NCBI RefSeq assembly: GCF_056746865.1
Contig: NZ_CM163382.1
Length of the DNA: 64,000 bases
Strand: one strand, 5' to 3'
Within the stretch, counting starts at the first letter, position 1. The number at the start of each line of letters is the position of its first letter. Shown here piece after piece: positions 7,472 through 37,665 of the stretch. Made by a program: the position numbers and the translations under genes. The notes under the pieces were generated by a model that saw only the letters and a list, made by a program, of their open reading frames with translations, did not search any database and was not told the origin of the DNA.

Positions 7472-8482
7472 TTATCGCGAAAGAGCAATGAGGGAGCCGC
7501 GGCGGATCAGTTTTCCGCTGAAGGTTTTCGGCGGTGAGAAATCCCCGCCATCGAGCATAAAAATCAGCCGTCCAATAATTTCCTGAATCATCTCAGTCAC
7601 CGGAATTTTTACGCTGGAGAGCGCCGGAACGGTGTAGGGGGCAATTGCGATATCATCGAATCCGATAACTGACACCTGCTCTGGCACCGCTACGCCGCGC
7701 TCGTGCAACGCTTTCATCGCACCTATCGCCATATCGTCGTTACTGGCAACTAACGCGCTAAATTTAGCCCCACGTTCGAGCAACGTTTCTACCCCTTCGG
7801 CCCCGCTGGCGGGCGTCCATTTACCGATAGCGATAAGTTTTTCATTGAGCGCAATACCATGCTGCGACAGCGCGTCTTTATACCCGGCAAGACGTTCAAT
7901 GCTGGTGGGGGAATCCATCGAGCCGGTAAGGAAAGCAATCTCCTGATGTCCGGCGTTTATCAACTCTGCCACGGCGTTAAAGCTGGTCTGTTTATGATCG
8001 CACCAGACGCTATGGCTGCTATTTTTGCGCAGGCGGCGATTAAGCACCATTATCGGCTGACTGTGTGCGTCAATGATGTCATCAATCTCATCCACGCTTA
8101 AAAAACGCGGGTAAATCATAATGGCGTCGCAGCGCAAATCCAGCAGATACTGAATCGCCTGGCGCTCTTCTTCGGCGCTGTGTTTACCATCTGCCAATAG
8201 CAACTGTCGCCCTTTCTCTTCCGCCATTCGCGCGGCATGAAAGAGTAATTCACTAAAATAAATGCCGTGGTAAAGTGTGTTGGTCACTACCAGCCCCAGC
8301 GTCTGAGTACTCTTCGCCGACAGATTGCGCGCCAGCAAGTTTGGACGGTAACCGCTCTCTTCTACCGCCTGAAACACGCGATCTTTAGTCTCCTGGCTGA
8401 CGTAGCCATTACCTGAAAGCACGCGGGAAACGGTCGCTTTTGAAACCCCGGCGCGCTTCGCCACTTCCAGCATCGTCGTCAT
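7472..8482 (-). CDS. ascG: LacI-family repressor of the asc operon
   Basis: 336 aa from MTTMLEVAKRAGVSKATVSRVLSG (HTH) plus periplasmic-binding-like effector domain; divergent from ascFB. Confidence 0.85.
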   Translation of the reverse strand: MTTMLEVAKRAGVSKATVSRVLSGNGYVSQETKDRVFQAVEESGYRPNLLARNLSAKSTQTLGLVVTNTLYHGIYFSELLFHAARMAEEKGRQLLLADGKHSAEEERQAIQYLLDLRCDAIMIYPRFLSVDEIDDIIDAHSQPIMVLNRRLRKNSSHSVWCDHKQTSFNAVAELINAGHQEIAFLTGSMDSPTSIERLAGYKDALSQHGIALNEKLIAIGKWTPASGAEGVETLLERGAKFSALVASNDDMAIGAMKALHERGVAVPEQVSVIGFDDIAIAPYTVPALSSVKIPVTEMIQEIIGRLIFMLDGGDFSPPKTFSGKLIRRGSLIALSR

Positions 8483-8741
8483 CATTTTCATCCCTTTACA
8501 CGCAATTAACGCAGTGTACTGCACCGTTTGCCGATTGTCCTTGCGCAATCGGCGGGAAAAATATTCAGGTGACCGGTTTCACAAATATAAAAAATGAACA
8601 ATTAACTCTCTTGCTTATTTAGTGACAACTATTCATGATTTTGTGAAACCGGTTTCTTAATTCCGTTTCAGCATCGGCATTTTTCCGTCACGTCGACTGA
8701 TAACAACTACATCTACCCTACTGATAACAGGATAAAATCCG

Positions 8742-11632
<2,891 letters not shown>

Positions 11633-23554: not shown

Positions 23555-25633
23555 ATGTCATATACACCGATGAGTGATCTCGGACAACAAGGTTTGTTCG
23601 ACATCACTCGGACACTATTGCAGCAGCCCGATCTGGCCTCGCTGTGTGAGGCTCTTTCGCTACTGGTAAAGCGTTCTGCGCTCGCCGACAACGCGGCTAT
23701 TGTGTTGTGGCAAGCGCAGACTCAACGTGCGTCTTATTACGCGTCGCGTGAAAAAGACACCCCCATTAAATATGAAGACGAAACTGTTCTGGCACACGGT
23801 CCGGTACGCAGCATTTTGTCGCGCCCTGATACGCTGCATTGCAGTTACGAAGAATTTTGTGAAACCTGGCCGCAGCTGGCCGCAGGTGGGCTATACCCAA
23901 AATTTGGTCACTATTGCCTGATGCCACTGGCGGCAGAAGGGCATATTTTTGGTGGCTGTGAATTTATTCGTTATGACGATCGCCCCTGGAGCGAAAAAGA
24001 GTTCAATCGTCTGCAAACATTTACGCAGATCGTTTCTGTCGTCACCGAACAAATCCAGAGTCGAGTCGTTAACAATGTTGACTATGAGTTGTTATGCCGG
24101 GAACGCGATAACTTCCGCATCCTGGTCGCCATCACCAACGCGGTGCTTTCCCGCCTGGATATGGACGAACTGGTCAGCGAAGTCGCCAAAGAAATCCATT
24201 ACTATTTCGACATTGACGATATCAGCATTGTCTTACGCAGCCACCGTAAAAACAAACTCAACATCTACTCCACTCACTATCTTGATAAACAACATCCCGC
24301 CCACGAACAGAGCGAAGTCGATGAAGCCGGAACCCTCACCGAACGCGTGTTCAAAAGCAAAGAGATGCTGCTGATTAATCTCCACGAGCGGGACGATTTA
24401 GCCCCCTATGAACGCATGTTGTTCGACACCTGGGGCAACCAGATTCAAACCTTGTGCCTGTTACCGCTGATGTCTGGCGATACCATGCTGGGCGTGCTGA
24501 AACTGGCGCAATGCGAAGAGAAAGTGTTTACCACTACCAATTTGAATTTACTGCGCCAGATTGCCGAACGTGTGGCAATCGCTGTCGATAACGCCCTCGC
24601 CTATCAGGAAATCCATCGTCTGAAAGAACGGCTGGTTGATGAAAACCTCGCCCTGACCGAGCAGCTCAACAATGTTGATAGTGAATTTGGCGAGATTATT
24701 GGCCGCAGCGAAGCCATGTACAGCGTACTTAAACAAGTTGAAATGGTGGCGCAAAGTGACAGTACTGTTCTGATCCTCGGTGAAACTGGTACAGGTAAAG
24801 AGCTGATTGCCCGCGCGATCCATAATCTCAGTGGGCGTAATAATCGCCGCATGGTCAAAATGAACTGCGCGGCGATGCCTGCCGGATTGCTGGAGAGCGA
24901 TCTGTTTGGTCATGAGCGTGGGGCTTTTACCGGTGCCAGCGCCCAGCGTATCGGTCGTTTTGAACTGGCGGATAAAAGCTCCCTGTTCCTCGACGAAGTG
25001 GGCGATATGCCACTGGAGTTACAGCCGAAGTTGCTGCGTGTATTACAGGAACAGGAGTTTGAACGTCTCGGCAGCAACAAAATCATTCAGACGGACGTGC
25101 GTCTAATCGCCGCAACTAACCGCGATCTGAAAAAAATGGTCGCCGACCGAGAGTTCCGTAGCGATCTCTATTACCGCCTGAACGTATTCCCGATCCACCT
25201 GCCGCCACTACGCGAGCGTCCGGAAGATATTCCGCTGCTGGCGAAAGCCTTTACCTTCAAAATTGCCCGTCGTCTGGGGCGTAATATCGACAGCATTCCT
25301 GCCGAGACGCTGCGCACCTTGAGCAACATGGAGTGGCCGGGTAACGTACGCGAACTGGAAAACGTCATTGAGCGCGCAGTATTGCTGACACGCGGCAACG
25401 TGCTGCAGCTGTCATTGCCAGATATTGTTTTACCGGAACCAGAAACGCCGCCTGCCGCAACAGTTGTCGCTCAGGAGGGCGAAGATGAATATCAGTTGAT
25501 TGTTCGCGTGCTGAAAGAAACTAACGGCGTGGTTGCCGGGCCTAAAGGCGCTGCGCAACGTCTGGGGCTGAAACGCACGACCCTGCTGTCACGGATGAAG
25601 CGGCTTGGAATTGATAAATCGGCATTGATTTAA
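23555..25633 (+). CDS. fhlA: formate hydrogenlyase transcriptional activator FhlA
   Basis: 692 aa from MSYTPMSDLG; sigma54-activator AAA+ motifs GETGTGKE and GAFTGA; C-terminal HTH. Confidence 0.9.
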   Translation: MSYTPMSDLGQQGLFDITRTLLQQPDLASLCEALSLLVKRSALADNAAIVLWQAQTQRASYYASREKDTPIKYEDETVLAHGPVRSILSRPDTLHCSYEEFCETWPQLAAGGLYPKFGHYCLMPLAAEGHIFGGCEFIRYDDRPWSEKEFNRLQTFTQIVSVVTEQIQSRVVNNVDYELLCRERDNFRILVAITNAVLSRLDMDELVSEVAKEIHYYFDIDDISIVLRSHRKNKLNIYSTHYLDKQHPAHEQSEVDEAGTLTERVFKSKEMLLINLHERDDLAPYERMLFDTWGNQIQTLCLLPLMSGDTMLGVLKLAQCEEKVFTTTNLNLLRQIAERVAIAVDNALAYQEIHRLKERLVDENLALTEQLNNVDSEFGEIIGRSEAMYSVLKQVEMVAQSDSTVLILGETGTGKELIARAIHNLSGRNNRRMVKMNCAAMPAGLLESDLFGHERGAFTGASAQRIGRFELADKSSLFLDEVGDMPLELQPKLLRVLQEQEFERLGSNKIIQTDVRLIAATNRDLKKMVADREFRSDLYYRLNVFPIHLPPLRERPEDIPLLAKAFTFKIARRLGRNIDSIPAETLRTLSNMEWPGNVRELENVIERAVLLTRGNVLQLSLPDIVLPEPETPPAATVVAQEGEDEYQLIVRVLKETNGVVAGPKGAAQRLGLKRTTLLSRMKRLGIDKSALI

Positions 25634-25677
25634 CAGATGTGGTTATACTCGATCAACATTCAATGAAAGGAGGCAGT

Positions 25678-26106
25678 ATGGCAGTTTCAGCAAGAAATCA
25701 ATTAACCGGAACGGTTAGCGCAGTAGCAATGGGCGCTGTGAATGATGAAGTAGAACTGACGCTGGCAGGTGGTGCAAAACTGGTGGCAATTGTGACTCAC
25801 AGCAGCCAGCAGGCTCTTGGTCTGGCAAAAGGGAAAGAAGCGATTGCCCTGATTAAAGCCCCGTGGGTCACGCTGGCAACGGAAGACTGTGGACTGAAAT
25901 TCTCTGCTCGCAACCAATTTGCTGGCAGCGTGTCGACAATCACCGAAGGCGCAGTGAACGCCACTGTCCATATCAAAACGGATGCGGGTTTTGAAATTGT
26001 GGCAGTGGTAACAAATGAAAGTCAGGATGAAATGAAACTCACCACTGGCTCGCGCGTTATTGCATTGATCAAAGCATCAGCCATCCTGATTGCCACCAAA
26101 GCGTAA
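25678..26106 (+). CDS. molybdate-binding protein with two tandem Mop/TOBE domains
   Basis: 142 aa from MAVSARNQLTGTV with RBS aaaggagg; two ~70-aa repeats (SARNQ...ALIKA). Confidence 0.7.
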   Translation: MAVSARNQLTGTVSAVAMGAVNDEVELTLAGGAKLVAIVTHSSQQALGLAKGKEAIALIKAPWVTLATEDCGLKFSARNQFAGSVSTITEGAVNATVHIKTDAGFEIVAVVTNESQDEMKLTTGSRVIALIKASAILIATKA

Positions 26107-26144
26107 ACGCCTTATTTGCCGGAGAGTATGGCTCTCCGGCAGAT

Positions 26145-26489
26145 TTATTTCTTTGGACGATATTTTTCTGGCAACTCCGGCACCGGACGCTTGTCATCGA
26201 TGAGATGACGCACGGTTAAGATCGGATGACGCCACAGCATTCTCGGCCCGGCCCAACGCATAATCTGTTTCATCTCTTCACGCTTTGCAGGCTGGTAACA
26301 GTGCACCGGACACTGCTTACAGGCTGGTTTCTCTTCGCCGAACACACATTTATCCAGCCGCTTTTGCGCGTAGGCAAACAGCGCGTCGTAATGCTCCGGC
26401 TCCGCTGACGCCTGCGGGCATTTCGCTTGATAAAGATCGATCATTTTTTTAATCGTCAGTTTTTCACGAGAGATACGCTTGCCGGACAT
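26145..26489 (-). CDS. ygbA: YgbA family protein (NsrR-regulon member)
   Basis: 114-aa Cys-rich ORF (CPQASAEPEH...CKQCPVHCY) at the position of E. coli ygbA. Confidence 0.8.
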   Translation of the reverse strand: MSGKRISREKLTIKKMIDLYQAKCPQASAEPEHYDALFAYAQKRLDKCVFGEEKPACKQCPVHCYQPAKREEMKQIMRWAGPRMLWRHPILTVRHLIDDKRPVPELPEKYRPKK

Positions 26490-26506
26490 GCTGCCTCCAT
26501 CTCATT

Positions 26507-26535
26507 AAGATGCATTTATATTACAACTTAATCTT
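26507..26535. promoter_or_regulatory. NsrR-box-like imperfect inverted repeat upstream of ygbA
   Basis: aagatgcatttatattacaacttaatctt about 20 bp upstream of the ygbA start. Confidence 0.4.
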
Positions 26536-26775
26536 AAAGGGCACTATGACTCTAAAGAAGAAGGGTTAGCCAACCGATACAATTTTGCGTACTTGCTTCA
26601 TAAGCATCACGCAAAAGCTGCAAAACAGCATCTTTCCCGGAATCACCATCAAGAACTCGCCGTTCGCTTCTTCCCCTGAAATGATTAACTCCGGTATCAT
26701 GTGCGCCTTATGTGATTACAACGAAAATAAAAACCATCACACCCCATTTAATATCAGGGAACCGGACATAACCCC

Positions 26776-29337
26776 ATGAGTGCAATAGAAAATTTCGATG
26801 CCCATACGCCCATGATGCAGCAGTATCTCAAGCTGAAAGCCCAGCATCCCGAGATCCTGCTGTTTTACCGGATGGGTGATTTTTATGAACTGTTTTATGA
26901 CGACGCAAAACGCGCGTCGCAACTGCTGGATATTTCACTGACCAAACGCGGTGCTTCGGCGGGAGAGCCGATCCCGATGGCGGGGATCCCCTACCATGCG
27001 GTGGAAAACTACCTCGCCAAACTGGTGAATCAGGGCGAGTCCGTTGCCATCTGCGAACAAATTGGCGATCCGGCGACCAGCAAAGGTCCGGTTGAGCGCA
27101 AAGTTGTGCGTATCGTTACGCCGGGCACCATCAGCGATGAAGCCCTGTTACAAGAGCGCCAGGACAATCTGCTGGCGGCTATCTGGCAGGACAGCAAAGG
27201 TTTCGGCTACGCGACGCTGGATATCAGTTCCGGTCGTTTTCGCCTGAGCGAACCGGCTGACCGGGAAACGATGGCGGCAGAACTGCAACGCACTAATCCG
27301 GCGGAACTGCTATATGCAGAAGATTTTGCTGAAATGTCGTTAATTGAAGGTCGTCGCGGTCTGCGCCGTCGTCCGCTGTGGGAGTTTGAAATCGACACCG
27401 CGCGCCAGCAGTTGAATCTGCAATTTGGCACCCGCGATCTGGTCGGTTTTGGCGTCGAGAACGCGCCGCGCGGACTTTGTGCTGCCGGTTGTCTGTTGCA
27501 GTATGCGAAAGATACTCAACGCACGACCCTGCCGCATATTCGTTCTATCACCATGGAACGTGAGCAGGACAGCATCATTATGGATGCCGCGACACGTCGT
27601 AACCTGGAAATTACTCAGAACCTGGCGGGCGGTGCGGAAAACACGCTGGCTTCAGTGCTCGACTGCACTGTAACGCCAATGGGTAGTCGTATGCTGAAAC
27701 GCTGGCTGCATATGCCAGTGCGCGATACCCGCGTGTTGCTTGAGCGCCAGCAAACTATTGGCGCATTGCAGGATTTCACCGCCGAGCTACAGCCGGTGCT
27801 GCGTCAGGTCGGCGACCTGGAACGTATTCTGGCACGTCTGGCTTTACGAACTGCTCGCCCACGCGATCTGGCCCGTATGCGTCACGCTTTCCAGCAACTG
27901 CCGGAGCTGCGTGCGCAGTTAGAAAATGTCGATAGCGCTCCGGTACAGGCGCTGCGTGAGAAGATGGGTGAGTTTGCCGAACTGCGCGATCTGCTGGAGC
28001 GGGCCATTATCGACACACCGCCGGTACTGGTGCGCGACGGTGGTGTTATCGCATCGGGCTATAACGAAGAGCTGGATGAGTGGCGCGCGCTGGCTGACGG
28101 CGCGACCGATTATCTGGAGCGTCTGGAAGTCCGCGAGCGTGAACGTACCGGCCTGGACACGCTGAAAGTCGGATTTAACGCGGTGCATGGTTATTACATT
28201 CAGATCAGCCGTGGACAAAGCCATCTGGCACCGATTAACTACATGCGCCGCCAGACGCTGAAAAACGCCGAACGCTACATTATTCCAGAGCTAAAAGAGT
28301 ACGAAGATAAAGTTCTCACCTCAAAAGGCAAAGCACTGGCACTGGAAAAACAGCTTTATGAAGAGCTGTTCGACCTGCTGTTGCCGCATCTGGAAGCGTT
28401 GCAACAGAGCGCAAGCGCACTGGCAGAACTTGATGTGCTGGTTAACCTGGCGGAGCGGGCCTATACCCTGAACTACACCTGCCCGACCTTCATTGATAAA
28501 CCGGGTATTCGCATCACCGAAGGCCGCCATCCGGTGGTTGAACAGGTACTGAACGAGCCATTTATCGCCAACCCGCTGAACCTGTCGCCGCAGCGTCGCA
28601 TGTTGATCATTACCGGTCCGAATATGGGCGGTAAAAGTACCTATATGCGCCAGACCGCACTGATTGCGCTGATGGCCTACATCGGCAGCTATGTACCGGC
28701 ACAAAAAGTCGAGATTGGACCTATCGATCGCATCTTTACCCGCGTAGGGGCAGCGGATGATCTGGCATCCGGGCGTTCAACCTTTATGGTGGAAATGACC
28801 GAAACCGCCAATATTTTACATAACGCCACCGAGTACAGTCTGGTGCTGATGGATGAGATTGGGCGTGGAACGTCCACTTACGATGGTCTGTCGCTGGCGT
28901 GGGCGTGCGCTGAAAATCTGGCGAATAAGATTAAGGCATTGACGTTGTTTGCTACCCATTATTTCGAGCTGACCCAGTTACCGGAGAAAATGGAAGGCGT
29001 GGCTAACGTGCATCTCGATGCACTGGAGCACGGCGACACCATTGCCTTTATGCACAGCGTGCAGGATGGCGCGGCGAGCAAAAGCTACGGCCTGGCGGTT
29101 GCAGCTCTGGCGGGCGTGCCAAAAGAGGTTATTAAGCGCGCACGGCAAAAACTGCGTGAGCTGGAAAGCATTTCGCCGAACGCCGCCGCTACGCAAGTAG
29201 ATGGTACGCAAATGTCTTTGCTGTCAGTGCCAGAAGAAACGTCGCCTGCGGTCGAAGCACTGGAAAATCTCGACCCGGATTCACTGACTCCGCGTCAGGC
29301 GCTGGAGTGGATTTATCGCTTGAAGAGTCTGGTGTAA
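26776..29337 (+). CDS. mutS: DNA mismatch repair protein MutS
   Basis: 853-aa ORF; Walker [10 protein letters not shown]. Confidence 0.95.
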
Positions 29338-29343
29338 TATTAA

Positions 29344-29370
29344 TGAGCCCCGATTAAACTTCGGGGCTCA
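29344..29370 (+). terminator. stem-loop after mutS
   Basis: tgagccccg-attaaactt-cggggctca perfect 9-bp stem; no clean T-tract. Confidence 0.45.
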
Positions 29371-29441
29371 TATATCTCTTATCCGATAGATAAAAAAGGA
29401 GTAAAATAAACACTATTAAGAACAAAACATTCAAGAAAAAA

Positions 29442-30305
29442 ATGAGAATAACGATTGCATCAATAATTTTAATAATTAGCGCCACTGCAATAGGCGCCGA
29501 AGATACCCCTTCACATTTTGATATTCCCGAGCAAGTATTAAATAATATTACGAAGGAATCACGAAATAAACTGCAGGATATCATTGCCAAGGCTCAACAT
29601 GGCGATAAAGCCTCACAAACGGTGATGGGACTCATATACCTGAATGGTCTATCTGAAAGTCCTTCAGTGAAGGATATAAACAAAGCATTTTATTGGCTCA
29701 ACCTTGCAGCAAAGCAAAATTATGATGAAGCTGAATTTTACTTAGGACAGATTTATCATTACGGATATGATAATACGGGGCCTAACTATCGTATTGCGAT
29801 ATACTGGTATGAGAAAGCGGCAGAAAAAGGGAATGAACAAGCTCAAATAAACTGTGCGAATATTTATCAATTTGGCCCACAGGAATTCCAAAACATTAAC
29901 AAAGCCAAGTATTGGCTTCAGAAAGCAGTACAGAAGGACAATCCTATTGCACATGCAAACTTAGGGATTATCGGAATTCAAGAGAATAAGTATGCTGAAG
30001 CTATCCCTCACTTAAAAATAGCGGCAGAAAAGGGTCAGCGACTCGGCCAATATAATTACGGGACACTTTTTTTTAATGGTCAGGGCGTTCCCAAAGATAT
30101 ACGACAGGCTAAATACTGGTTTGAGAAAGCTGCTACTCAAAACTTACCTATTGCACAAATTACTTTAGGACAAATTTATGCCTGGGGGCTTGATGGAAAT
30201 GGCATAAATAAAGAAGAAGCGTTGCTCTGGTTAAATAAAGCCAAAGCCCAAGGTCAATTTACTGATAAACAGATCAACGCCATTATTTCAAAAAAAATAG
30301 ACTAA
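29442..30305 (+). CDS. secreted Sel1-repeat (TPR-like) protein
   Basis: 287 aa; signal-peptide-like N-terminus MRITIASIILIISATAIGA; at least four repeats of KA.YW..KAA..G...AQ..LG.IY; AT-rich. Confidence 0.75.
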   Translation: MRITIASIILIISATAIGAEDTPSHFDIPEQVLNNITKESRNKLQDIIAKAQHGDKASQTVMGLIYLNGLSESPSVKDINKAFYWLNLAAKQNYDEAEFYLGQIYHYGYDNTGPNYRIAIYWYEKAAEKGNEQAQINCANIYQFGPQEFQNINKAKYWLQKAVQKDNPIAHANLGIIGIQENKYAEAIPHLKIAAEKGQRLGQYNYGTLFFNGQGVPKDIRQAKYWFEKAATQNLPIAQITLGQIYAWGLDGNGINKEEALLWLNKAKAQGQFTDKQINAIISKKID

Positions 30306-30329
30306 CTCCAAACCAAAATGCTCAAATCA

Positions 30330-30986
30330 ATGCCATCTATTCGCTATCACAAAATAGAATCATTTAATTATCGCCATATATGGGCCGTTGGTGATATTCA
30401 TGGCGATTATCAATTATTACAATCCCGCTTACACCAACTCTCTTTTTGCCCCGAAACTGACTTACTTATTTCCGTAGGCGATAATATTGATCGTGGGCCG
30501 GATAGTCTTAACGTGCTACGCCTGTTAAACCAGCCCTGGTTTACATCGGTTAAAGGCAACCACGAGGCAATGGCGCTTGATGCCTTCGCGACTGGCGATG
30601 GCAATATGTGGCTTGCCAGTGGCGGTGACTGGTTCTTTGAGTTAAATGATTCAGAACAAAAAGAAGCAATAGACCTGTTGCTTCGCTTTCATCATCTTCC
30701 GCATATTATAGAAATCACCAACGATATTATAAAATATGTTATCGCACATGCAGATTATCCGGGTGATGAATATCAGTTTGGCAAGGAAGTAGCGGAAAGA
30801 GAGGTACTCTGGCCTGTTGATCGCGTGCAGAAATCACTCAAAGGCGAGTTAAAAGAAATAAACGGTGCCGACTGTTTTATCTTCGGGCATATGATGTTTA
30901 CAAATATCCAGACATTTGCCAATCAGGTTTATATTGATACCGGCTCGCCGGAAAGCGGGCGGTTATCGTTTTATAAAATAAAATGA
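30330..30986 (+). CDS. pphB: serine/threonine protein phosphatase 2
   Basis: 218 aa from MPSIRYHKI; metallophosphatase motifs GDIHG, GDNIDRG, GNHE. Confidence 0.85.
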   Translation: MPSIRYHKIESFNYRHIWAVGDIHGDYQLLQSRLHQLSFCPETDLLISVGDNIDRGPDSLNVLRLLNQPWFTSVKGNHEAMALDAFATGDGNMWLASGGDWFFELNDSEQKEAIDLLLRFHHLPHIIEITNDIIKYVIAHADYPGDEYQFGKEVAEREVLWPVDRVQKSLKGELKEINGADCFIFGHMMFTNIQTFANQVYIDTGSPESGRLSFYKIK

Positions 30987-31027
30987 CAAGACCGGGTAAG
31001 GCAAAGCCTCTACCCGGCACTTTTTTA

Positions 31028-31264
31028 TTAACGCTTATCTGCCACCAGCAGTGGCGGAATGCTCGGCACCATTGGCGCGTCATCAATATCTTTCTGCGTC
31101 ATGCGGAACGCTTCGGGATAATGTTCGCGGCTGGTGCGGCGCAGCGGTTCGGTATCGCGCCAGGTATAGAGGCAATGCTGGCACTGGTAGACCGTCCAGA
31201 CATCTTTTACCGGCGATTTCGCCATCACTTCAATCTGTTCATCGGCACAACGTGGACAAATCAT
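31028..31264 (-). CDS. small zinc-ribbon subunit of UbiD/UbiX-type decarboxylase system
   Basis: 78 aa with CPRC...CQHC; immediately downstream of the UbiD-like gene in the same operon. Confidence 0.55.
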   Translation of the reverse strand: MICPRCADEQIEVMAKSPVKDVWTVYQCQHCLYTWRDTEPLRRTSREHYPEAFRMTQKDIDDAPMVPSIPPLLVADKR

Positions 31265-31274
31265 CTTGTTCTCC

Positions 31275-32702
31275 TTATTTACGTGCGGCCAGCATAGCGG
31301 TCAGTTTTTCAGCCCAGGCTTTGGTTTCCGGTAAATCCACCACCGGCTGGCTGTAGTGACCACGGTTGTCCGGGGCGACAGGCGTGGTGGCGTCGATAAT
31401 CAGCTTGTCGGTGATACCGGCCGGGCTTGAGCCGGGGTCGAGTTCCAGCACGGACATATTCGGCAACTGCACCAAATCCCCTGCCGGGTTCACTTTCGAG
31501 GAGAGCGCCCACATCACCTGCGGCAGGTTGAACGGATCAACGTCTTCATCGACCATAATCACCATCTTCACGTAGCCCAGACCGTGTGGCGTGGTCATCG
31601 CACGCAGGCCCACCGCGCGGGCAAAGCCACCGTAGCGTTTTTTGGTGGAGATAATCGCCAGCAGGCCGTGGGTGTACATGGCGTTCACCGCCTGCACTTC
31701 CGGGAACTCGGCTTTCAGTTGCTGATACAGCGGCACGCAGGTGGCTGGCCCCATCAGGTAGTCGATTTCCGTCCACGGCATCCCGAGATAGAGCGATTCA
31801 AAAATGGGTTTGCTGCGATAAGAGACTTTATCAATGCGCACGACGGTCATATTGCGCCCGCCTGAGTAGTGGCCGGTAAACTCACCGAATGGCCCTTCAA
31901 TCTCGCGTTTGCGGCTTTCGATGACTCCTTCGAGGATCACTTCCGAGCCCCAGGGTACATCAAAACCGGTCAGTGGGGCGGTGGCAATCGGGTACGGACT
32001 TTCGCGCAGCGCGCCCGCCATTTCGTACTCGGACTGATCATATTTCAGCGGCGTGGCCCCCATCAGCGTGATGATCGGATCGTTACCGAGCGTGATCGCA
32101 ATCGGCAGATCTTCACCGCGCTCTTCCGCTTTATGCAGATGCAGGGCAATATCGTGCATCGGCACCGGTTGCAGGCCGAGCTTACGTTTGCCTTTCACTT
32201 CCATACGATAGATACCGACGTTCTGCTTGCCGAAGTTATCCGGGTCGAGCGGATCGCGGGAAACTACGCACGCTTTGTCGAGATAGAAACCGCCATCACC
32301 GTCGTTTAAACGAAACAGTGGCAGAATATCGAACAGGTTAATCTCGTCGCCATCGACGGTGTTCTGCGCCCAGGCTGGATTGGCGCGGCGCTCCGGGGCA
32401 ATGGGGAAGTTATCCCAGCGGCGGATAAACTCATCAATCTGTTTTTTAACCGGGGTGTTTGGCGGCAGGCCGAGGGAAATCGCGTGGTTCTGCCAGGAAC
32501 CGATGGTGTTCATTGCCACGCGGGCATCGATAAAGCCGCGAATATTATCAAACCAAAGCGCGGGCGCGCCGTCGCCGATACGCCCGGTGGCGTTGGCTGC
32601 GGCTGCCAGATCCGGTTCCGCGTTCACCTCTTCGCTGATTTTCAGTAACTGGCCGTGGTCATCAAGCGCCTGTAAAAAGCTGCGTAAATCATCAAATGCC
32701 AT
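31275..32702 (-). CDS. UbiD-family (prFMN-dependent) aromatic acid decarboxylase
   Basis: 475-aa ORF with UbiD-family length and architecture; operon with UbiX-like gene. Confidence 0.8.
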   Translation of the reverse strand: MAFDDLRSFLQALDDHGQLLKISEEVNAEPDLAAAANATGRIGDGAPALWFDNIRGFIDARVAMNTIGSWQNHAISLGLPPNTPVKKQIDEFIRRWDNFPIAPERRANPAWAQNTVDGDEINLFDILPLFRLNDGDGGFYLDKACVVSRDPLDPDNFGKQNVGIYRMEVKGKRKLGLQPVPMHDIALHLHKAEERGEDLPIAITLGNDPIITLMGATPLKYDQSEYEMAGALRESPYPIATAPLTGFDVPWGSEVILEGVIESRKREIEGPFGEFTGHYSGGRNMTVVRIDKVSYRSKPIFESLYLGMPWTEIDYLMGPATCVPLYQQLKAEFPEVQAVNAMYTHGLLAIISTKKRYGGFARAVGLRAMTTPHGLGYVKMVIMVDEDVDPFNLPQVMWALSSKVNPAGDLVQLPNMSVLELDPGSSPAGITDKLIIDATTPVAPDNRGHYSQPVVDLPETKAWAEKLTAMLAARK

Positions 32703-33295
32703 TATTCATTCTCCTGAGAAAAATTCCGGGCCTGCGGCAATCCTTGCCAGCGCCTGGCGTGAGGATGTTCGAGGCCAAATTGATCCAGCACGCGGGCTAC
32801 CACATGGTGGACAATGTCATCTACCGTTTCGGGATGGTTATAAAAGGCAGGCATCGGCGGCACCATCGCCACACCCATGCGCGAAAGTGCGAGCATATTT
32901 TCGAGATGGATTGTGCTAAGCGGCATTTCACGCGGCACCAGCACCAGTTTGCGGCCTTCTTTGAGCACGACGTCCGCCGCGCGCCCTACGAGACCATCGG
33001 CGTAACCAGCGCGGATACCGGCGAGCGTTTTCATACTGCATGGAATAACGATCATGCCGTCGGTACGAAAGGAGCCGGAAGAGATAGTCGCAGCCTGATC
33101 CGCCGGGTTATGGCTGAAGTCTGCGAGGGCGGCAACATCGCGAGCGCTGTAAGGCGTTTCCAGTTCAATGGTGGTTTTCGCCCACTTCGACATCACCAGA
33201 TGAGTCTCGACATTCGGCATCTCCCGCAGCGCTTGCAGTAATGCCACCCCAAGAGGCGCACCGGTAGCCCCTGTCATCCCGACGATCAGTCTCAT
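32702..33295 (-). CDS. UbiX/Pad1-family flavin prenyltransferase
   Basis: 197 aa; N-terminal MRLIVGMTGATGA flavoprotein fold; overlaps UbiD-like start. Confidence 0.8.
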   Translation of the reverse strand: MRLIVGMTGATGAPLGVALLQALREMPNVETHLVMSKWAKTTIELETPYSARDVAALADFSHNPADQAATISSGSFRTDGMIVIPCSMKTLAGIRAGYADGLVGRAADVVLKEGRKLVLVPREMPLSTIHLENMLALSRMGVAMVPPMPAFYNHPETVDDIVHHVVARVLDQFGLEHPHARRWQGLPQARNFSQENE

Positions 33296-33408
33296 TGTTT
33301 ATTCTCTTAATTGTTCGTATACGAACGTTATTATTAAAATACGCCTCTGTTTTCATCGCGGCAAGCACTGAAAAGTAACAACATCTTCTTCGTCACTGAA
33401 AAACCGCT

Positions 33409-33849
33409 ATGATAGCGGCAGATAGTTTGCCCGGAGTTTACATGGCGTTACGAAATAAAGCGTTCCATCAGTTACGACAGCTTTTTCAGCAGCACACGGC
33501 TCGCTGGCAGCACGAGTTACCTGACCTCACCAAACCACAGTACGCGGTGATGCGCGCCATTGCTGATAAGCCTGGTATTGAACAGGTGGCACTGATAGAA
33601 GCAGCAGTCAGCACCAAAGCAACGCTGGCAGAAATGTTGGCAAGAATGGAAAATCGTGGCTTAGTCAGACGTGAACATGACGCCGCTGACAAGCGGCGAC
33701 GCTTTGTCTGGCTGACTGCCGAAGGAGAAAAGGTACTTGCTGCGGCGATACCGATTGGTGACAGTGTGGATGCGGAATTTTTGGGGCGTTTGAGTGGAGA
33801 AGAGCAGGAGCTGTTTATGCAGCTGGTGCGCAAGATGATGAGCAAATAG
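33409..33849 (+). CDS. MarR/SlyA-family transcriptional regulator
   Basis: 146 aa with winged-HTH pattern; divergent from decarboxylase operon. Confidence 0.75.
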   Translation: MIAADSLPGVYMALRNKAFHQLRQLFQQHTARWQHELPDLTKPQYAVMRAIADKPGIEQVALIEAAVSTKATLAEMLARMENRGLVRREHDAADKRRRFVWLTAEGEKVLAAAIPIGDSVDAEFLGRLSGEEQELFMQLVRKMMSK

Positions 33850-33925
33850 GATGCTGATTGCCGGGTAGGACGCTGACGAGTCTTATCCAGGCGACAAAAC
33901 ACACCGACTTCCCAAACAAAAGAAA

Positions 33926-33953
33926 AAGGCCAGCCTCGCTTGAGACTGGCCTT
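33926..33953 (-). terminator. rho-independent terminator of rpoS
   Basis: aaggccag...ctggcctt stem; on the minus strand followed by ttttcttttgtttggg (plus 33910-33925). Confidence 0.55.
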
Positions 33954-33969
33954 TCTGACAGATGCTTAC

Positions 33970-34962
33970 TTACTCGCGGAACAGCGCTTCGATATTCAGC
34001 CCCTGCGTTTGCAGGATTTCGCGCAAACGGCGCAGGCCTTCAACCTGAATCTGGCGAACACGTTCACGGGTGAGGCCAATTTCACGACCTACATCTTCCA
34101 GTGTTGCCGCTTCGTACCCCAGCAAACCGAATCGACGTGCCAGCACTTCACGCTGTTTGGCGTTCAGCTCGAACAGCCATTTGACGATGCTCTGCTTCAT
34201 ATCGTCATCTTGCGTGGTATCTTCCGGACCGTTCTCTTTTTCATCGGCCAGGATGTCCAGCAACGCTTTTTCGGAATCACCACCCAGCGGGGTGTCTACC
34301 GAGGTAATGCGCTCGTTAAGACGAAGCATACGGCTGACGTCATCAACTGGCTTATCCAGTTGCTCTGCGATCTCTTCCGCACTTGGTTCGTGGTCCAGTT
34401 TATGGGACAACTCGCGTGCGGTTCGCAGGTAAACGTTCAGCTCCTTTACGATGTGAATCGGCAAACGAATAGTACGGGTTTGGTTCATAATCGCCCGTTC
34501 GATCGTCTGGCGGATCCACCAGGTTGCGTATGTTGAGAAGCGGAAACCACGTTCCGGGTCAAACTTCTCTACCGCGCGGATCAGCCCCAGGTTGCCCTCT
34601 TCGATCAGGTCCAACAGCGCCAGACCACGATTGCCATAACGGCGGGCAATCTTCACGACCAGACGCAGGTTACTTTCAATCATCCGGCGACGTGAAGCGA
34701 CATCTCCACGCAGTGCGCGACGCGCGAAATAAACTTCTTCTTCGGCCGTTAACAGTGGCGAATAACCAATCTCACCAAGGTAAAGCTGAGTCGCGTCCAA
34801 CACACGCTGTGTGGCCCCTTGCGATAACAGCTCCTCTTCAGCCAAATCGTTATCACTGGGTTCCTCTTCAACTAAGGCTTTCTCGTCAAAAACCTCAACT
34901 CCGTTCTCATCAAATTCCGCGTCTTCATTTAAATCATGAACTTTCAGCGTATTCTGACTCAT
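33970..34962 (-). CDS. rpoS: RNA polymerase sigma factor sigma-S
   Basis: 330-aa full-length ORF with sigma70-family regions 2-4; codon 33 is GAG (Glu). Confidence 0.95.
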
Positions 34963-35024
34963 AAGGTGGCTCCTACCCGTGATCCCTTGACGGAACTAGC
35001 AAGCAAAAGCCTGGTTCCGCCGAA

Positions 35025-36164
35025 TTATCGCTGCGGTAAATAACGCAGCGGGTTTACGGATTTCCCCTTGTAACGAATTTCAAAATGCAAGCGTGTTGAA
35101 CTGGTTCCGGTGCTACCCATGGTTGCTATTTTTTGCCCCGCCTTCACTTCTTGTTGTTCCCGGACCAGCATTGTGTCGTTATGGGCGTAGGCACTCAGGT
35201 AATCATCATTATGTTTGATGATAATCAGATTACCGTAGCCGCGCAGCGCGTTACCGGCATAAACAACGCGGCCATCTGCGGTCGCGATAATTGCCTGTCC
35301 TTTGCTGCCTGCGATATCAATCCCCTTGTTGCCCCCCTCAGAAGCGCCAAAGGTTTCGATCACTTTGCCCTCAGTCGGCCAGCGCCAGGTGGAGATAGGC
35401 GTACTGGTTGATGTACTGCTGACAGTCGGCTCGGTTGTGCTTGCTGTTGGTACCGTTACAGGCGCTGTGACCGTGGTCGCAGTTGGCTTGTTGTTCGGCA
35501 ACATTTTGTTAGCACTCTGTTCACCCGAAGACTCAGAATACGTAATTGTCGGTTGCGACGCAACAGCAACGGTGGAATTTTGTGCAGGCTTGATCACAAC
35601 TCCTTGCTCTGCTGCGTCGGCCTGGGTAATGGCATTTCCGCCAGTGATTGGCGTACCGGAAGCATTACCCACCTGTAAGGTCTGACCGACGTTCAGCGCG
35701 TATGGTGCCTGAATATTGTTGCGCTGAGCAAGGTCACGGAAATCGTTGCCAGTAATCCAGGCGATATAGAAAAGTGTGTCGCCTTTTTTCACGGTATAGG
35801 TACTGCCGCTATAACTGCCTTTCGGAATGTTCCCATACTGACGGTTATAGACGATGCGTCCGTTTTCCATCTGTACCGGCTGCTGAGCTACTGGCTGTAC
35901 TGGCTGGATTTGCGGTTGTTGAGTAGCCTGAATTTGTGGCTGCTGTACCGGCTGAATTTGCGGTTGCTGCGCTGTAGACGTCGTTCCCATTTTCGGCGGT
36001 GGCGTAATCAACATACCAGAATTGGTATTTGCAGGCGCATTGCCATTAACGGAGCTTACCGGTGCCGGTGGATTTGAAGTGTCAGAACAGCCTGCCAGCC
36101 ATAGCGAAACCAGTGACAAAGCCGCAATGCGGCGAACGGTGAATTTTGGGCTTCCCGCGCTCAT
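35025..36164 (-). CDS. nlpD: murein hydrolase activator lipoprotein NlpD
   Basis: 379 aa; lipoprotein signal (LAGCS), LysM, Q/P-rich repeat, C-terminal M23 peptidase-like domain. Confidence 0.9.
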
Positions 36165-36303
36165 TTATCCCCCAGGAAAAATTGGTTAATAACCAGTGAC
36201 ATAATTACCGTGCAAGGCACCATACTGAACACTGGAAAAGATGTTCACGATACGCTGACCTGCGGCAAAATAACCAGGAAAAATCCAGGTATTTCCTCAC
36301 GTT

Positions 36304-37665
<1,362 letters not shown>

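Follow-up and report, generated by a model that had tools for sequence, protein, structure and literature searches.

The mutS-rpoS interval of the analysed DNA (the window, a 64,000-nucleotide stretch of contig NZ_CM163382.1) carries, between its two conserved flanking genes, a Sel1-repeat gene, pphB, a decarboxylase operon in the order B-C-D and a divergently transcribed gene of the MarR family. All genes named for the interval were found as open reading frames in the window, and all were intact. The features are as follows, in window coordinates:

26776-29337, plus strand: mutS, the left conserved flank
29343-29371, plus strand: terminator-like hairpin just 3' of the mutS stop codon, at the start of the polymorphic tract
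29442-30305, plus strand: Sel1-repeat gene, 864 bp, encoding a Sel1-like repeat (SLR) protein of 287 aa
30330-30986, plus strand: pphB, encoding serine/threonine protein phosphatase 2 (PrpB), 218 aa
31028-31264, minus strand: ecdD/vdcD, subunit D, a zinc ribbon of 78 aa with two CXXC pairs
31275-32702, minus strand: ecdC/vdcC, subunit C, a UbiD-family (prFMN-dependent) decarboxylase of 475 aa
32702-33295, minus strand: ecdB (Pad1), subunit B, a UbiX-family flavin prenyltransferase of 197 aa
33313-33326, no strand assigned: HosA operator upstream of ecdB, a perfect 14-bp palindrome (GTTCGTATACGAAC) 17 nt from the start codon of that gene
33442-33849, plus strand: hosA, encoding a MarR/SlyA-family repressor of 135 aa, divergent from ecdBCD
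33923-33956, minus strand: rpoS terminator hairpin, a 15-bp stem followed by a run of T
33970-34962, minus strand: rpoS, the right conserved flank, intact, 330 aa

Comparison of the window with MG1655 showed that homology to K-12 stops at 29339 and restarts at 33924, so that the variable tract spans 29340-33923 and the rpoS terminator hairpin forms its right edge. These limits are almost exactly those from which the original prediction had started (29338-33960). In MG1655 the order is mutS-pphB-ygbIJKLMN-rpoS; the ygbI-N block had zero matches across the entire window, and pphB was the only part of the tract shared with K-12 (30324-30982, 84.4% nucleotide identity). The gene set is thus unlike that of K-12, as predicted, and K-12 itself was found to carry ygbI-N at this position rather than identical content. 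The accompanying claim that mutS-rpoS is a polymorphic hotspot agrees with published work (PMC4209514). On the left, the mutS allele is unusually divergent from that of K-12 (95.9% nucleotide identity, dS 0.18), and the hairpin behind it differs among K-12, the O157 type, Citrobacter and E600003, each of which has its own version. An Rfam scan of 25000-37000 returned no RNA family at the gathering threshold.

The Sel1-repeat gene has a GC content of 38% compared with 52.4% for the window, which bears out its description as AT-rich. Its product scored 135.7 bits against Pfam Sel1 PF08238 (cut-off 30.7), with four stretches passing individually and six repeats counted by reading the sequence. 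Together with PDB matches to SLR proteins, the Pfam result settles the fold class at the level of sequence; the RefSeq name of the product is "tetratricopeptide repeat protein". By reading alone, the N-terminus (MRITIASIILIISATAIG-AE, with a putative cleavage site between MRITIASIILIISATAIG and AE) resembles a Sec signal peptide, and it contains no lipobox cysteine. By analogy with orthologues, we take the protein to be, with some probability, a repeat scaffold destined for export, its gene probably co-transcribed with pphB, which starts 24 nt past it. The best PDB match was EsiB (c5321 of CFT073, 4BWR; 2e-49 over three stretches), which has the same repeat type. However, the EsiB chain is longer, with 467 residues compared with 287 for this protein, and the match runs repeat to repeat rather than end to end. 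We therefore rejected the EsiB label and orthology for this protein on the grounds of length and the three separate repeat-level stretches, nothing having pointed to a common function, although the UniRef name of the homologue in Pseudocitrobacter corydidari borrows that label. The EsiB gene lies at a locus other than mutS-rpoS. PphB was assigned by NCBIfam NF007425 (456.6, cut-off 332) and Pfam Metallophos (5.2e-15). It is 85.3% identical in amino acids to the K-12 allele (dS 0.72) and 87.6% identical to the O157-type allele; its dS against the two alleles (approximately 0.70-0.72) is far above that of neighbouring genes, and its GC content is 42% against 52% for the window.

Among 5,426 complete E. 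coli genomes, the sample used for all carriage counts, the full gene set was present in 181-192 (approximately 3.4%), including 042 and an ST69 strain, both of which we take to belong to phylogroup D. The decarboxylase occurs in 44% of the same genomes and ygbI-N in 84%. Four mutS-rpoS patterns have been described, of which the o454-less one matches EDL933, with kpdDCB and "slyA" next to rpoS (PMC4209514). Of this pattern (pattern I), the window shows the absence of o454/ygbN and the adjacency of kpdDCB and slyA/hosA to rpoS; pphB does not directly follow mutS. We conclude with high confidence that the window carries a known E. coli haplotype, o454/ygbN-negative and like the pattern I of O157:H7, in which one extra Sel1-repeat gene and a pphB allele of divergent sequence stand next to mutS. 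Nothing in it is new: the alternative gene set is already annotated in RefSeq for 042, and is real but ordinary.

Whether such a gene set identifies a lineage is a separate matter. The original prediction had called it a lineage marker, and its restriction to a minority of genomes is in keeping with that term; "locus haplotype marker" is the better one, because even carriers differ from one another in a mosaic fashion across the region. Against 042, the Sel1-repeat gene, pphB, subunit B and hosA are 99.5-100% identical, whereas identity falls to 97.1% in mutS and to 89% in a patch of the subunit C gene (31750-32000). This mosaicism could also indicate that the gene set travels as a recombining cassette among unrelated backgrounds instead of marking a clonal lineage, its presence then saying little about ancestry. 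Consistent with such movement, patterns I, II and IV are scattered among the non-B2 phylogroups (PMC4209514), an E. coli-like tract is present in another genus (P. corydidari), and some carriers bear IS insertions. Nonetheless, at least 20 complete genomes, ST69 strain EF5-18-41 among them, share the surrounding 24-kb stretch with the window at 100% identity, and 118 genomes match it at 99% or more, in agreement with a gene set inherited clonally in one sequence type at least; the full configuration is also rare rather than widely scattered. We therefore regard a freely moving cassette as a possible but rather doubtful account.

The least-described part of the known haplotype is the pair formed by the Sel1-repeat gene and the divergent pphB. 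Among the papers searched, we found none that mentions mutS, pphB and Sel1 together, and none on this Sel1-repeat gene at mutS-rpoS. A recent arrival of the pair as a foreign islet, instead of long residence of the haplotype at the locus, might be argued from the low GC content of both genes, the small number of carriers, the high dS of pphB relative to its neighbours, and the location of the closest relatives of the two genes in one P. corydidari genome (92.9% and 91.0% nucleotide identity, respectively). Several observations speak against recent import. In Citrobacter spp. and P. corydidari, too, mutS is followed directly by a Sel1-repeat gene in exactly this position, and the gene is very divergent in Citrobacter and Pseudocitrobacter, a 55%-identical version being named in other Pseudocitrobacter. 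A second allele, 54% identical, exists in E. coli, cryptic Escherichia and E. fergusonii, and neither mobility genes nor flanking repeats accompany the Sel1-repeat gene and pphB. Moreover, in P. corydidari the resemblance to E. coli is confined to the stretch between the mutS stop codon and the C/B junction, the background lying at 80-85%, and P. corydidari is the exception within its genus in having this stretch, so P. corydidari was more likely the recipient in a transfer from an Escherichia-like donor. Import of a foreign islet thus appears unlikely.

The tract seen in P. corydidari, with its likeness to E. coli, suggests that the Sel1-repeat gene may be exchanged between genera. The alleles of this gene are only 52-55% identical, compared with 97.7-99.6% for the neighbouring EcdC. 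We tentatively raise, as speculation with a low likelihood of being correct in full, that the Sel1-repeat protein may be a position-locked, fast-diverging exported protein that forms a two-gene unit with pphB across Escherichia, Citrobacter and Pseudocitrobacter, is exchanged between genera by homologous recombination, and may act in interaction with the host or the envelope, selection maintaining its deeply split alleles.

The predicted UbiX/UbiD-type decarboxylase operon with a small zinc-ribbon subunit was confirmed by family models, all three subunits scoring above cut-off: VdcB for subunit B (NF041206, 312.8; cut-off 290), VdcC for subunit C (NF041204, 788.5; cut-off 650) and VdcD for subunit D (NF041205, 121.2; cut-off 30). 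The genes lie in the order B-C-D on the minus strand, the ecdB stop codon overlapping the ecdC start codon, and we assign the operon by sequence as EcdBCD, a non-oxidative hydroxyarylic acid decarboxylase. Subunit B matched PDB 1SBZ ("probable aromatic acid decarboxylase") over its full length (3.6e-129). Subunit C contains all three UbiD Pfam domains and matched PDB 7AE4_A over residues 3-471 (1.2e-159). In alignment it retains EGPFGEF and the YR arginine of ShVdcC, the arginine correspondence being our own reading; VdcC and Fdc1 are stated to share the catalytic Glu-Arg-Glu motif (PMC8379154). Residues C3, C6, C28 and C31 of subunit D align with the cysteines of ShdD in 7AE4, where four cysteines bind zinc and a role of the D subunit has been shown (PMC8379154). 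Amino-acid identities to the O157-type proteins are 99.4% for C, 99.0% for B and 96.2% for D.

The divergent MarR regulator was likewise as predicted, lying on the strand opposite to ecdBCD (Pfam MarR, 7.2e-12). With 94.8% amino-acid identity to the O157-type protein, it is assigned as HosA, a repressor that would be released by 4-hydroxybenzoate; a longer open reading frame for hosA begins at 33409. The palindrome upstream of ecdB is the sole site in the window within two mismatches of GTTCGTATACGAAC, window positions 33306-33334 are found verbatim inside the published HosA probe T_H, and the operator is kept at four other loci (042, the O157 type, E600003 and P. corydidari). Release by 4-hydroxybenzoate has been reported for HosA of UMN026 (KD 4.7 uM) and of O157:H7 (PMC13355054, PMC6261655), the match to the operator probe being the single tie between the HosA system of the window and the protein of PMC6261655. 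A simple consensus-based promoter scan placed no sigma-70 site in the hosA-ecdB spacer, and the total number of its sites did not exceed that in shuffled sequence.

The substrate of the decarboxylase, which the original prediction called untested, can be predicted from published work. In a review table, 4-hydroxybenzoate is listed as the best substrate of recombinant O157:H7 EcdCD, which also takes vanillate, the sole substrate of vanillate decarboxylase (PMC6644310); the work of Lupa et al. (2005) and that of Herbelin et al. (2000) are cited here through PMC6644310, PMC6424909 and PMC4209514. Given this listing, the 99.4% identity of subunit C to the O157-type protein and the release of HosA by 4-hydroxybenzoate, 4-hydroxybenzoate and vanillate are the predicted substrates, and the question is not an open one. 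A different role for B-C-D, either as a UbiX/UbiD backup for ubiquinone synthesis or in decarboxylation of protocatechuate or gallate, is highly improbable: B and C are members of two broad superfamilies, UbiX and UbiD, and substrates vary widely within the family (AroY, Fdc1, HudA and others), but subunit C fits the VdcC model and not the UbiD equivalog (just 173.5, cut-off 788), its AroY match in the PDB is weak (approximately 1e-25 to 1e-27), and both the near-identical O157 enzyme and the specific response of the adjoining repressor point to 4-hydroxybenzoate.

By analogy with these orthologues, EcdB, as a UbiX-type enzyme, would make prenylated FMN, with which the UbiD-type EcdC would decarboxylate 4-hydroxybenzoate to phenol, and vanillate as well, while the zinc ribbon of EcdD would bind EcdC and activate it allosterically. 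HosA would bind GTTCGTATACGAAC just upstream of ecdB and repress ecdBCD, and 4-hydroxybenzoate would lift this repression. The haplotype has little import beyond strain typing, in which it sets 042 and ST69-like strains apart from the K-12 and O157 types. Where the function of the operon carries over, the haplotype would also tell which E. coli can convert 4-hydroxybenzoate to phenol, a precursor of the uraemic toxin phenyl sulfate, an operon for this conversion being carried by close to half of the complete E. coli genomes (approximately 44%). The locus adjoins mutS and rpoS, which shape mutation rate and stress response.

Compared with known systems, the arrangement is closest to that of 042 (EC042_RS15675-RS15710, NC_017626.1), which has the same order and orientation: mutS, the TPR/Sel1-repeat gene, pphB, D, C, B, MarR and rpoS. 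Both 042 and the window also have a TOBE-domain gene between flhA/fhlA and ygbA. The O157:H7-type pattern I, as far as it is described in the accounts of Herbelin 2000 and LeClerc 1999 given in PMC4209514, lacks ygbI-N like the window, and the two are further alike in having pphB followed by D-C-B, "slyA"/hosA next to rpoS and the same breakpoint at the rpoS terminator. However, the O157 type is without the Sel1-repeat gene and has pphB 105 bp past mutS, whereas in the window that gene lies between the two, so that the window departs in this respect from the O157 type as the literature describes it. The operon itself shares with the VdcBCD, ShdBCD, BsdBCD and EcdBCD systems (7AE4, 1SBZ) the B-C-D order, the UbiX prenyltransferase, the UbiD subunit with its ERE motif and the four-cysteine zinc ribbon. 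We found no structural difference from systems of the VdcBCD/ShdBCD type; the HosA repressor, encoded divergently, is an addition of the enterobacterial version.

Homology to E. coli K-12 (MG1655) ends at position 29339, two bases beyond the mutS stop codon, and restarts at 33924, at the base of the hairpin that forms the rpoS terminator (33956-33923); the polymorphic tract therefore spans 29340-33923. The MG1655 order is mutS-pphB-ygbI-ygbJ-ygbK-ygbL-ygbM-ygbN-rpoS. We detected zero matches to the ygbI-N block across the entire 64-kb window, and pphB, at 84.4% nucleotide identity, is the sole part of the tract shared with K-12, bearing out the original prediction of a gene set unlike that of K-12. 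The terminator-like hairpin immediately 3' of mutS is different and unrelated in each lineage.

Genes from mutS to rpoS (ORF map; window coordinates, strand, gene, product length)
26776-29337, +, mutS, 853 aa
29442-30305, +, Sel1-repeat gene, 287 aa
30330-30986, +, pphB, 218 aa
31028-31264, -, decarboxylase subunit D, 78 aa
31275-32702, -, decarboxylase subunit C (UbiD-like), 475 aa
32702-33295, -, decarboxylase subunit B (UbiX-like), 197 aa
33442-33849, +, MarR gene (hosA), 135 aa
33970-34962, -, rpoS, 330 aa

All of these assignments are backed by Pfam and NCBIfam. The pphB ORF could start at 30318, while NCBIfam and RefSeq place the start at 30330, and the stop codon of the B gene overlaps the start codon of the C gene. 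The window as a whole has 52.4% GC and the B-C-D genes 57%; the Sel1-repeat gene, at 38%, and pphB, at 42%, are AT-rich. The earlier description of an AT-rich Sel1-repeat gene, pphB, a decarboxylase operon and a divergent MarR gene was thus accurate on ORF map, domain and GC evidence.

The MarR protein is HosA. In O157:H7, this regulator responds specifically and strongly (up to 38-fold) to 4-hydroxybenzoate in vivo (PMC13355054), and repression of the decarboxylase operon is credited to Roy and Ranjan 2016, as cited in that paper. HosA of strain UMN026 recognizes a 14-bp palindromic site and binds 4-hydroxybenzoate with a KD of 4.7 uM (PMC6261655). A perfect palindrome, GTTCGTATACGAAC, lies in the hosA-ecdB spacer at 33313-33326, 17 nt 5' of the ecdB start codon, and window positions 33306-33334 occur verbatim within T_H, the published HosA probe. 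The palindrome is the single such site in the window, even with two mismatches permitted, and is kept in E. coli 042, the O157 type, E. coli E600003 and Pseudocitrobacter corydidari. A consensus promoter scan placed no promoter in the spacer.

Subunit C scored 788.5 bits against NCBIfam VdcC (cut-off 650) and only 173.5 against the UbiD equivalog (cut-off 788). Its residues 3-471 align with the Sedimentibacter enzyme (PDB 7AE4; 1.2e-159), with the EGPFGE and YR motifs kept. B gives a full-length match to PDB 1SBZ (3.6e-129), and D aligns with ShdD, including C3, C6, C28 and C31. As a zinc ribbon bound tightly to C, the D subunit is strictly needed for activity, probably because it fixes the catalytic Glu-Arg-Glu loops (PMC8379154). 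A review table places recombinant O157:H7 EcdCD with the 4-hydroxybenzoate decarboxylases; the enzyme works best on the compound common to that whole group, and it also takes the one compound that the Streptomyces vanillate decarboxylase uses (PMC6644310). When expressed in E. coli, kpdBCD is reported to convert 4-hydroxybenzoate to phenol (PMC6424909, citing Lupa 2005). The substrate question raised in the original prediction is already answered for near-identical orthologues, because the O157-type proteins (C 99.4%, B 99.0% and D 96.2% identical) have listed substrates and kpdBCD yields phenol. Within the C gene, identity to 042, the O157 type and P. corydidari drops to 87-95% over positions 31750-32250, from 96-100% in the flanks; the changes are almost all synonymous, given 99.4-99.6% protein identity, and this looks like a patch of intragenic recombination.

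To the gene content, family membership, operator identity and operon layout established in the window, orthologues add a probable mode of action, in which HosA bound to its operator would block ecdBCD until 4-hydroxybenzoate released it. EcdB would prenylate FMN, and EcdC, held in shape by EcdD and using the cofactor made by EcdB, would remove CO2 from 4-hydroxybenzoate to give phenol and decarboxylate vanillate likewise.

The Sel1-repeat gene and pphB are the least-described part of the region. Read from sequence, the N-terminus of the Sel1-repeat protein resembles a signal peptide, and six repeats can be counted. Generic SLR proteins are what it matches in the PDB, the best being EsiB, which we do not regard as an orthologue because the match is repeat-to-repeat. 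The protein has few close relatives: an E. coli cluster of 439 members, and a P. corydidari protein at 92% identity. Others, at 52-55%, come from Citrobacter, other Pseudocitrobacter (a 55%-identical allele) and a second Escherichia cluster, frequently annotated as fragments, whose members include E. fergusonii and a cryptic Escherichia. This second allele (54% amino acid identity) is found at the same position in a subset of E. coli, among them E600003 (3649-4503 of that locus), and in cryptic Escherichia and E. fergusonii; many of its database entries are only partial (87-170 aa), a hint of frequent pseudogenisation.

In Citrobacter and P. corydidari, a Sel1-repeat gene occupies the same place, right after mutS and ahead of the D-C-B genes, so it seems to be a long-established, fast-diverging occupant of the locus (dN/dS against P. 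corydidari is 0.19, where the C gene has 0.006). In Citrobacter, pphB is replaced by another ORF. At three loci (8982-9608, minus strand), this is an unrelated ORF of 153-208 aa with a signal-peptide-like start and no Pfam match, and tblastn found no pphB-like sequence there. A deep split (dS about 0.70-0.72) separates the window's pphB allele from those of K-12 and O157; the window's allele is nearer to pphB alleles linked with a Sel1-repeat gene.

P. corydidari CP087880 is 92-99% identical at the nucleotide level to the window from 29340 to about 32650, with about 80-85% on both sides. The tract (7897-11260 of the extracted locus; ~3.3 kb) covers the Sel1-repeat gene, pphB, D and C, and its edges are the mutS stop codon and the C/B junction. 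On the simplest reading, Escherichia-like DNA homologously replaced ~3.3 kb of P. corydidari, in what looks like recombination between genera; dS of 0.18-0.34 indicates that the exchange was not recent.

The window's mutS allele is unusually divergent for a single species, at 95-96% identity to most E. coli, 97.1% to 042 and at least 99% to just 142 genomes; compared with K-12 and the O157 type, its dS is 0.18-0.22. This agrees with reports that mutS alleles have been transferred horizontally. Between fhlA and ygbA, a gene with two TOBE/molybdopterin-binding (Mop) domains (25639-26106, +) is shared with 042 but missing from both K-12 and the O157-type locus. The longer fhlA-mutS amplicon (c3292), described as confined to strains of pattern III (B2) (PMC4209514), nevertheless occurs in the window, which has a non-B2-type haplotype. 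Some carriers have IS elements in the mutS-rpoS interval, including an IS4-like ISVsa5 and an IS3-family element within the tract (related loci in CE0007a and M7424), and E600003 has an IS200/IS605 transposase gene between hosA and rpoS (8229-8687).

Over 24 kb around the tract, at least 20 complete genomes are 100% identical and 118 are at least 99% identical. EF5-18-41, among the 100% matches, is listed as ST69, which we take, like 042, to be phylogroup D. Of the 5,426 complete E. coli genomes surveyed, 181-192 (about 3.4%) have the full set (Sel1-repeat gene, pphB, D-C-B and hosA), the second Sel1-repeat allele by inference accounting for about 11 (192 minus 181). The decarboxylase with hosA is found in 2,380 (44%) and ygbI-N in 4,577 (84%); many genomes therefore have both, the arrangement that the literature calls pattern IV. 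The 'DH5alpha'-labelled record NZ_CM135829.1 (4.83 Mb) has the decarboxylase-hosA block, which K-12 lacks, and its label or assembly is probably wrong.

The interval's standing as a polymorphic hotspot agrees with published typing of 510 strains, in which o454-nlpD falls into four patterns (PMC4209514): pattern I, the O157:H7/EHEC 1 group, is missing o454 (ygbN), while pattern IV combines o454 with kpdD, kpdC, kpdB and 'slyA'. That paper credits the original descriptions to LeClerc 1999, Herbelin 2000, Culham and Wood 2000, and Kotewicz 2003. The analysis confirms the observation and supports its interpretation; what was seen is a known polymorphism, with enzymes and a regulator that have been characterised before. 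Compared with reference lineages, the window differs in content from K-12 and matches the gene order of 042, where RefSeq names a 'tetratricopeptide repeat protein', pphB, 'non-oxidative hydroxyarylic acid decarboxylases subunit D/C/B' and a 'MarR family ... regulator'. An O157-type genome has the confirmed order mutS-pphB-D-C-B-MarR-rpoS, the same arrangement as the window, except that in the window a Sel1-repeat gene lies between mutS and pphB.
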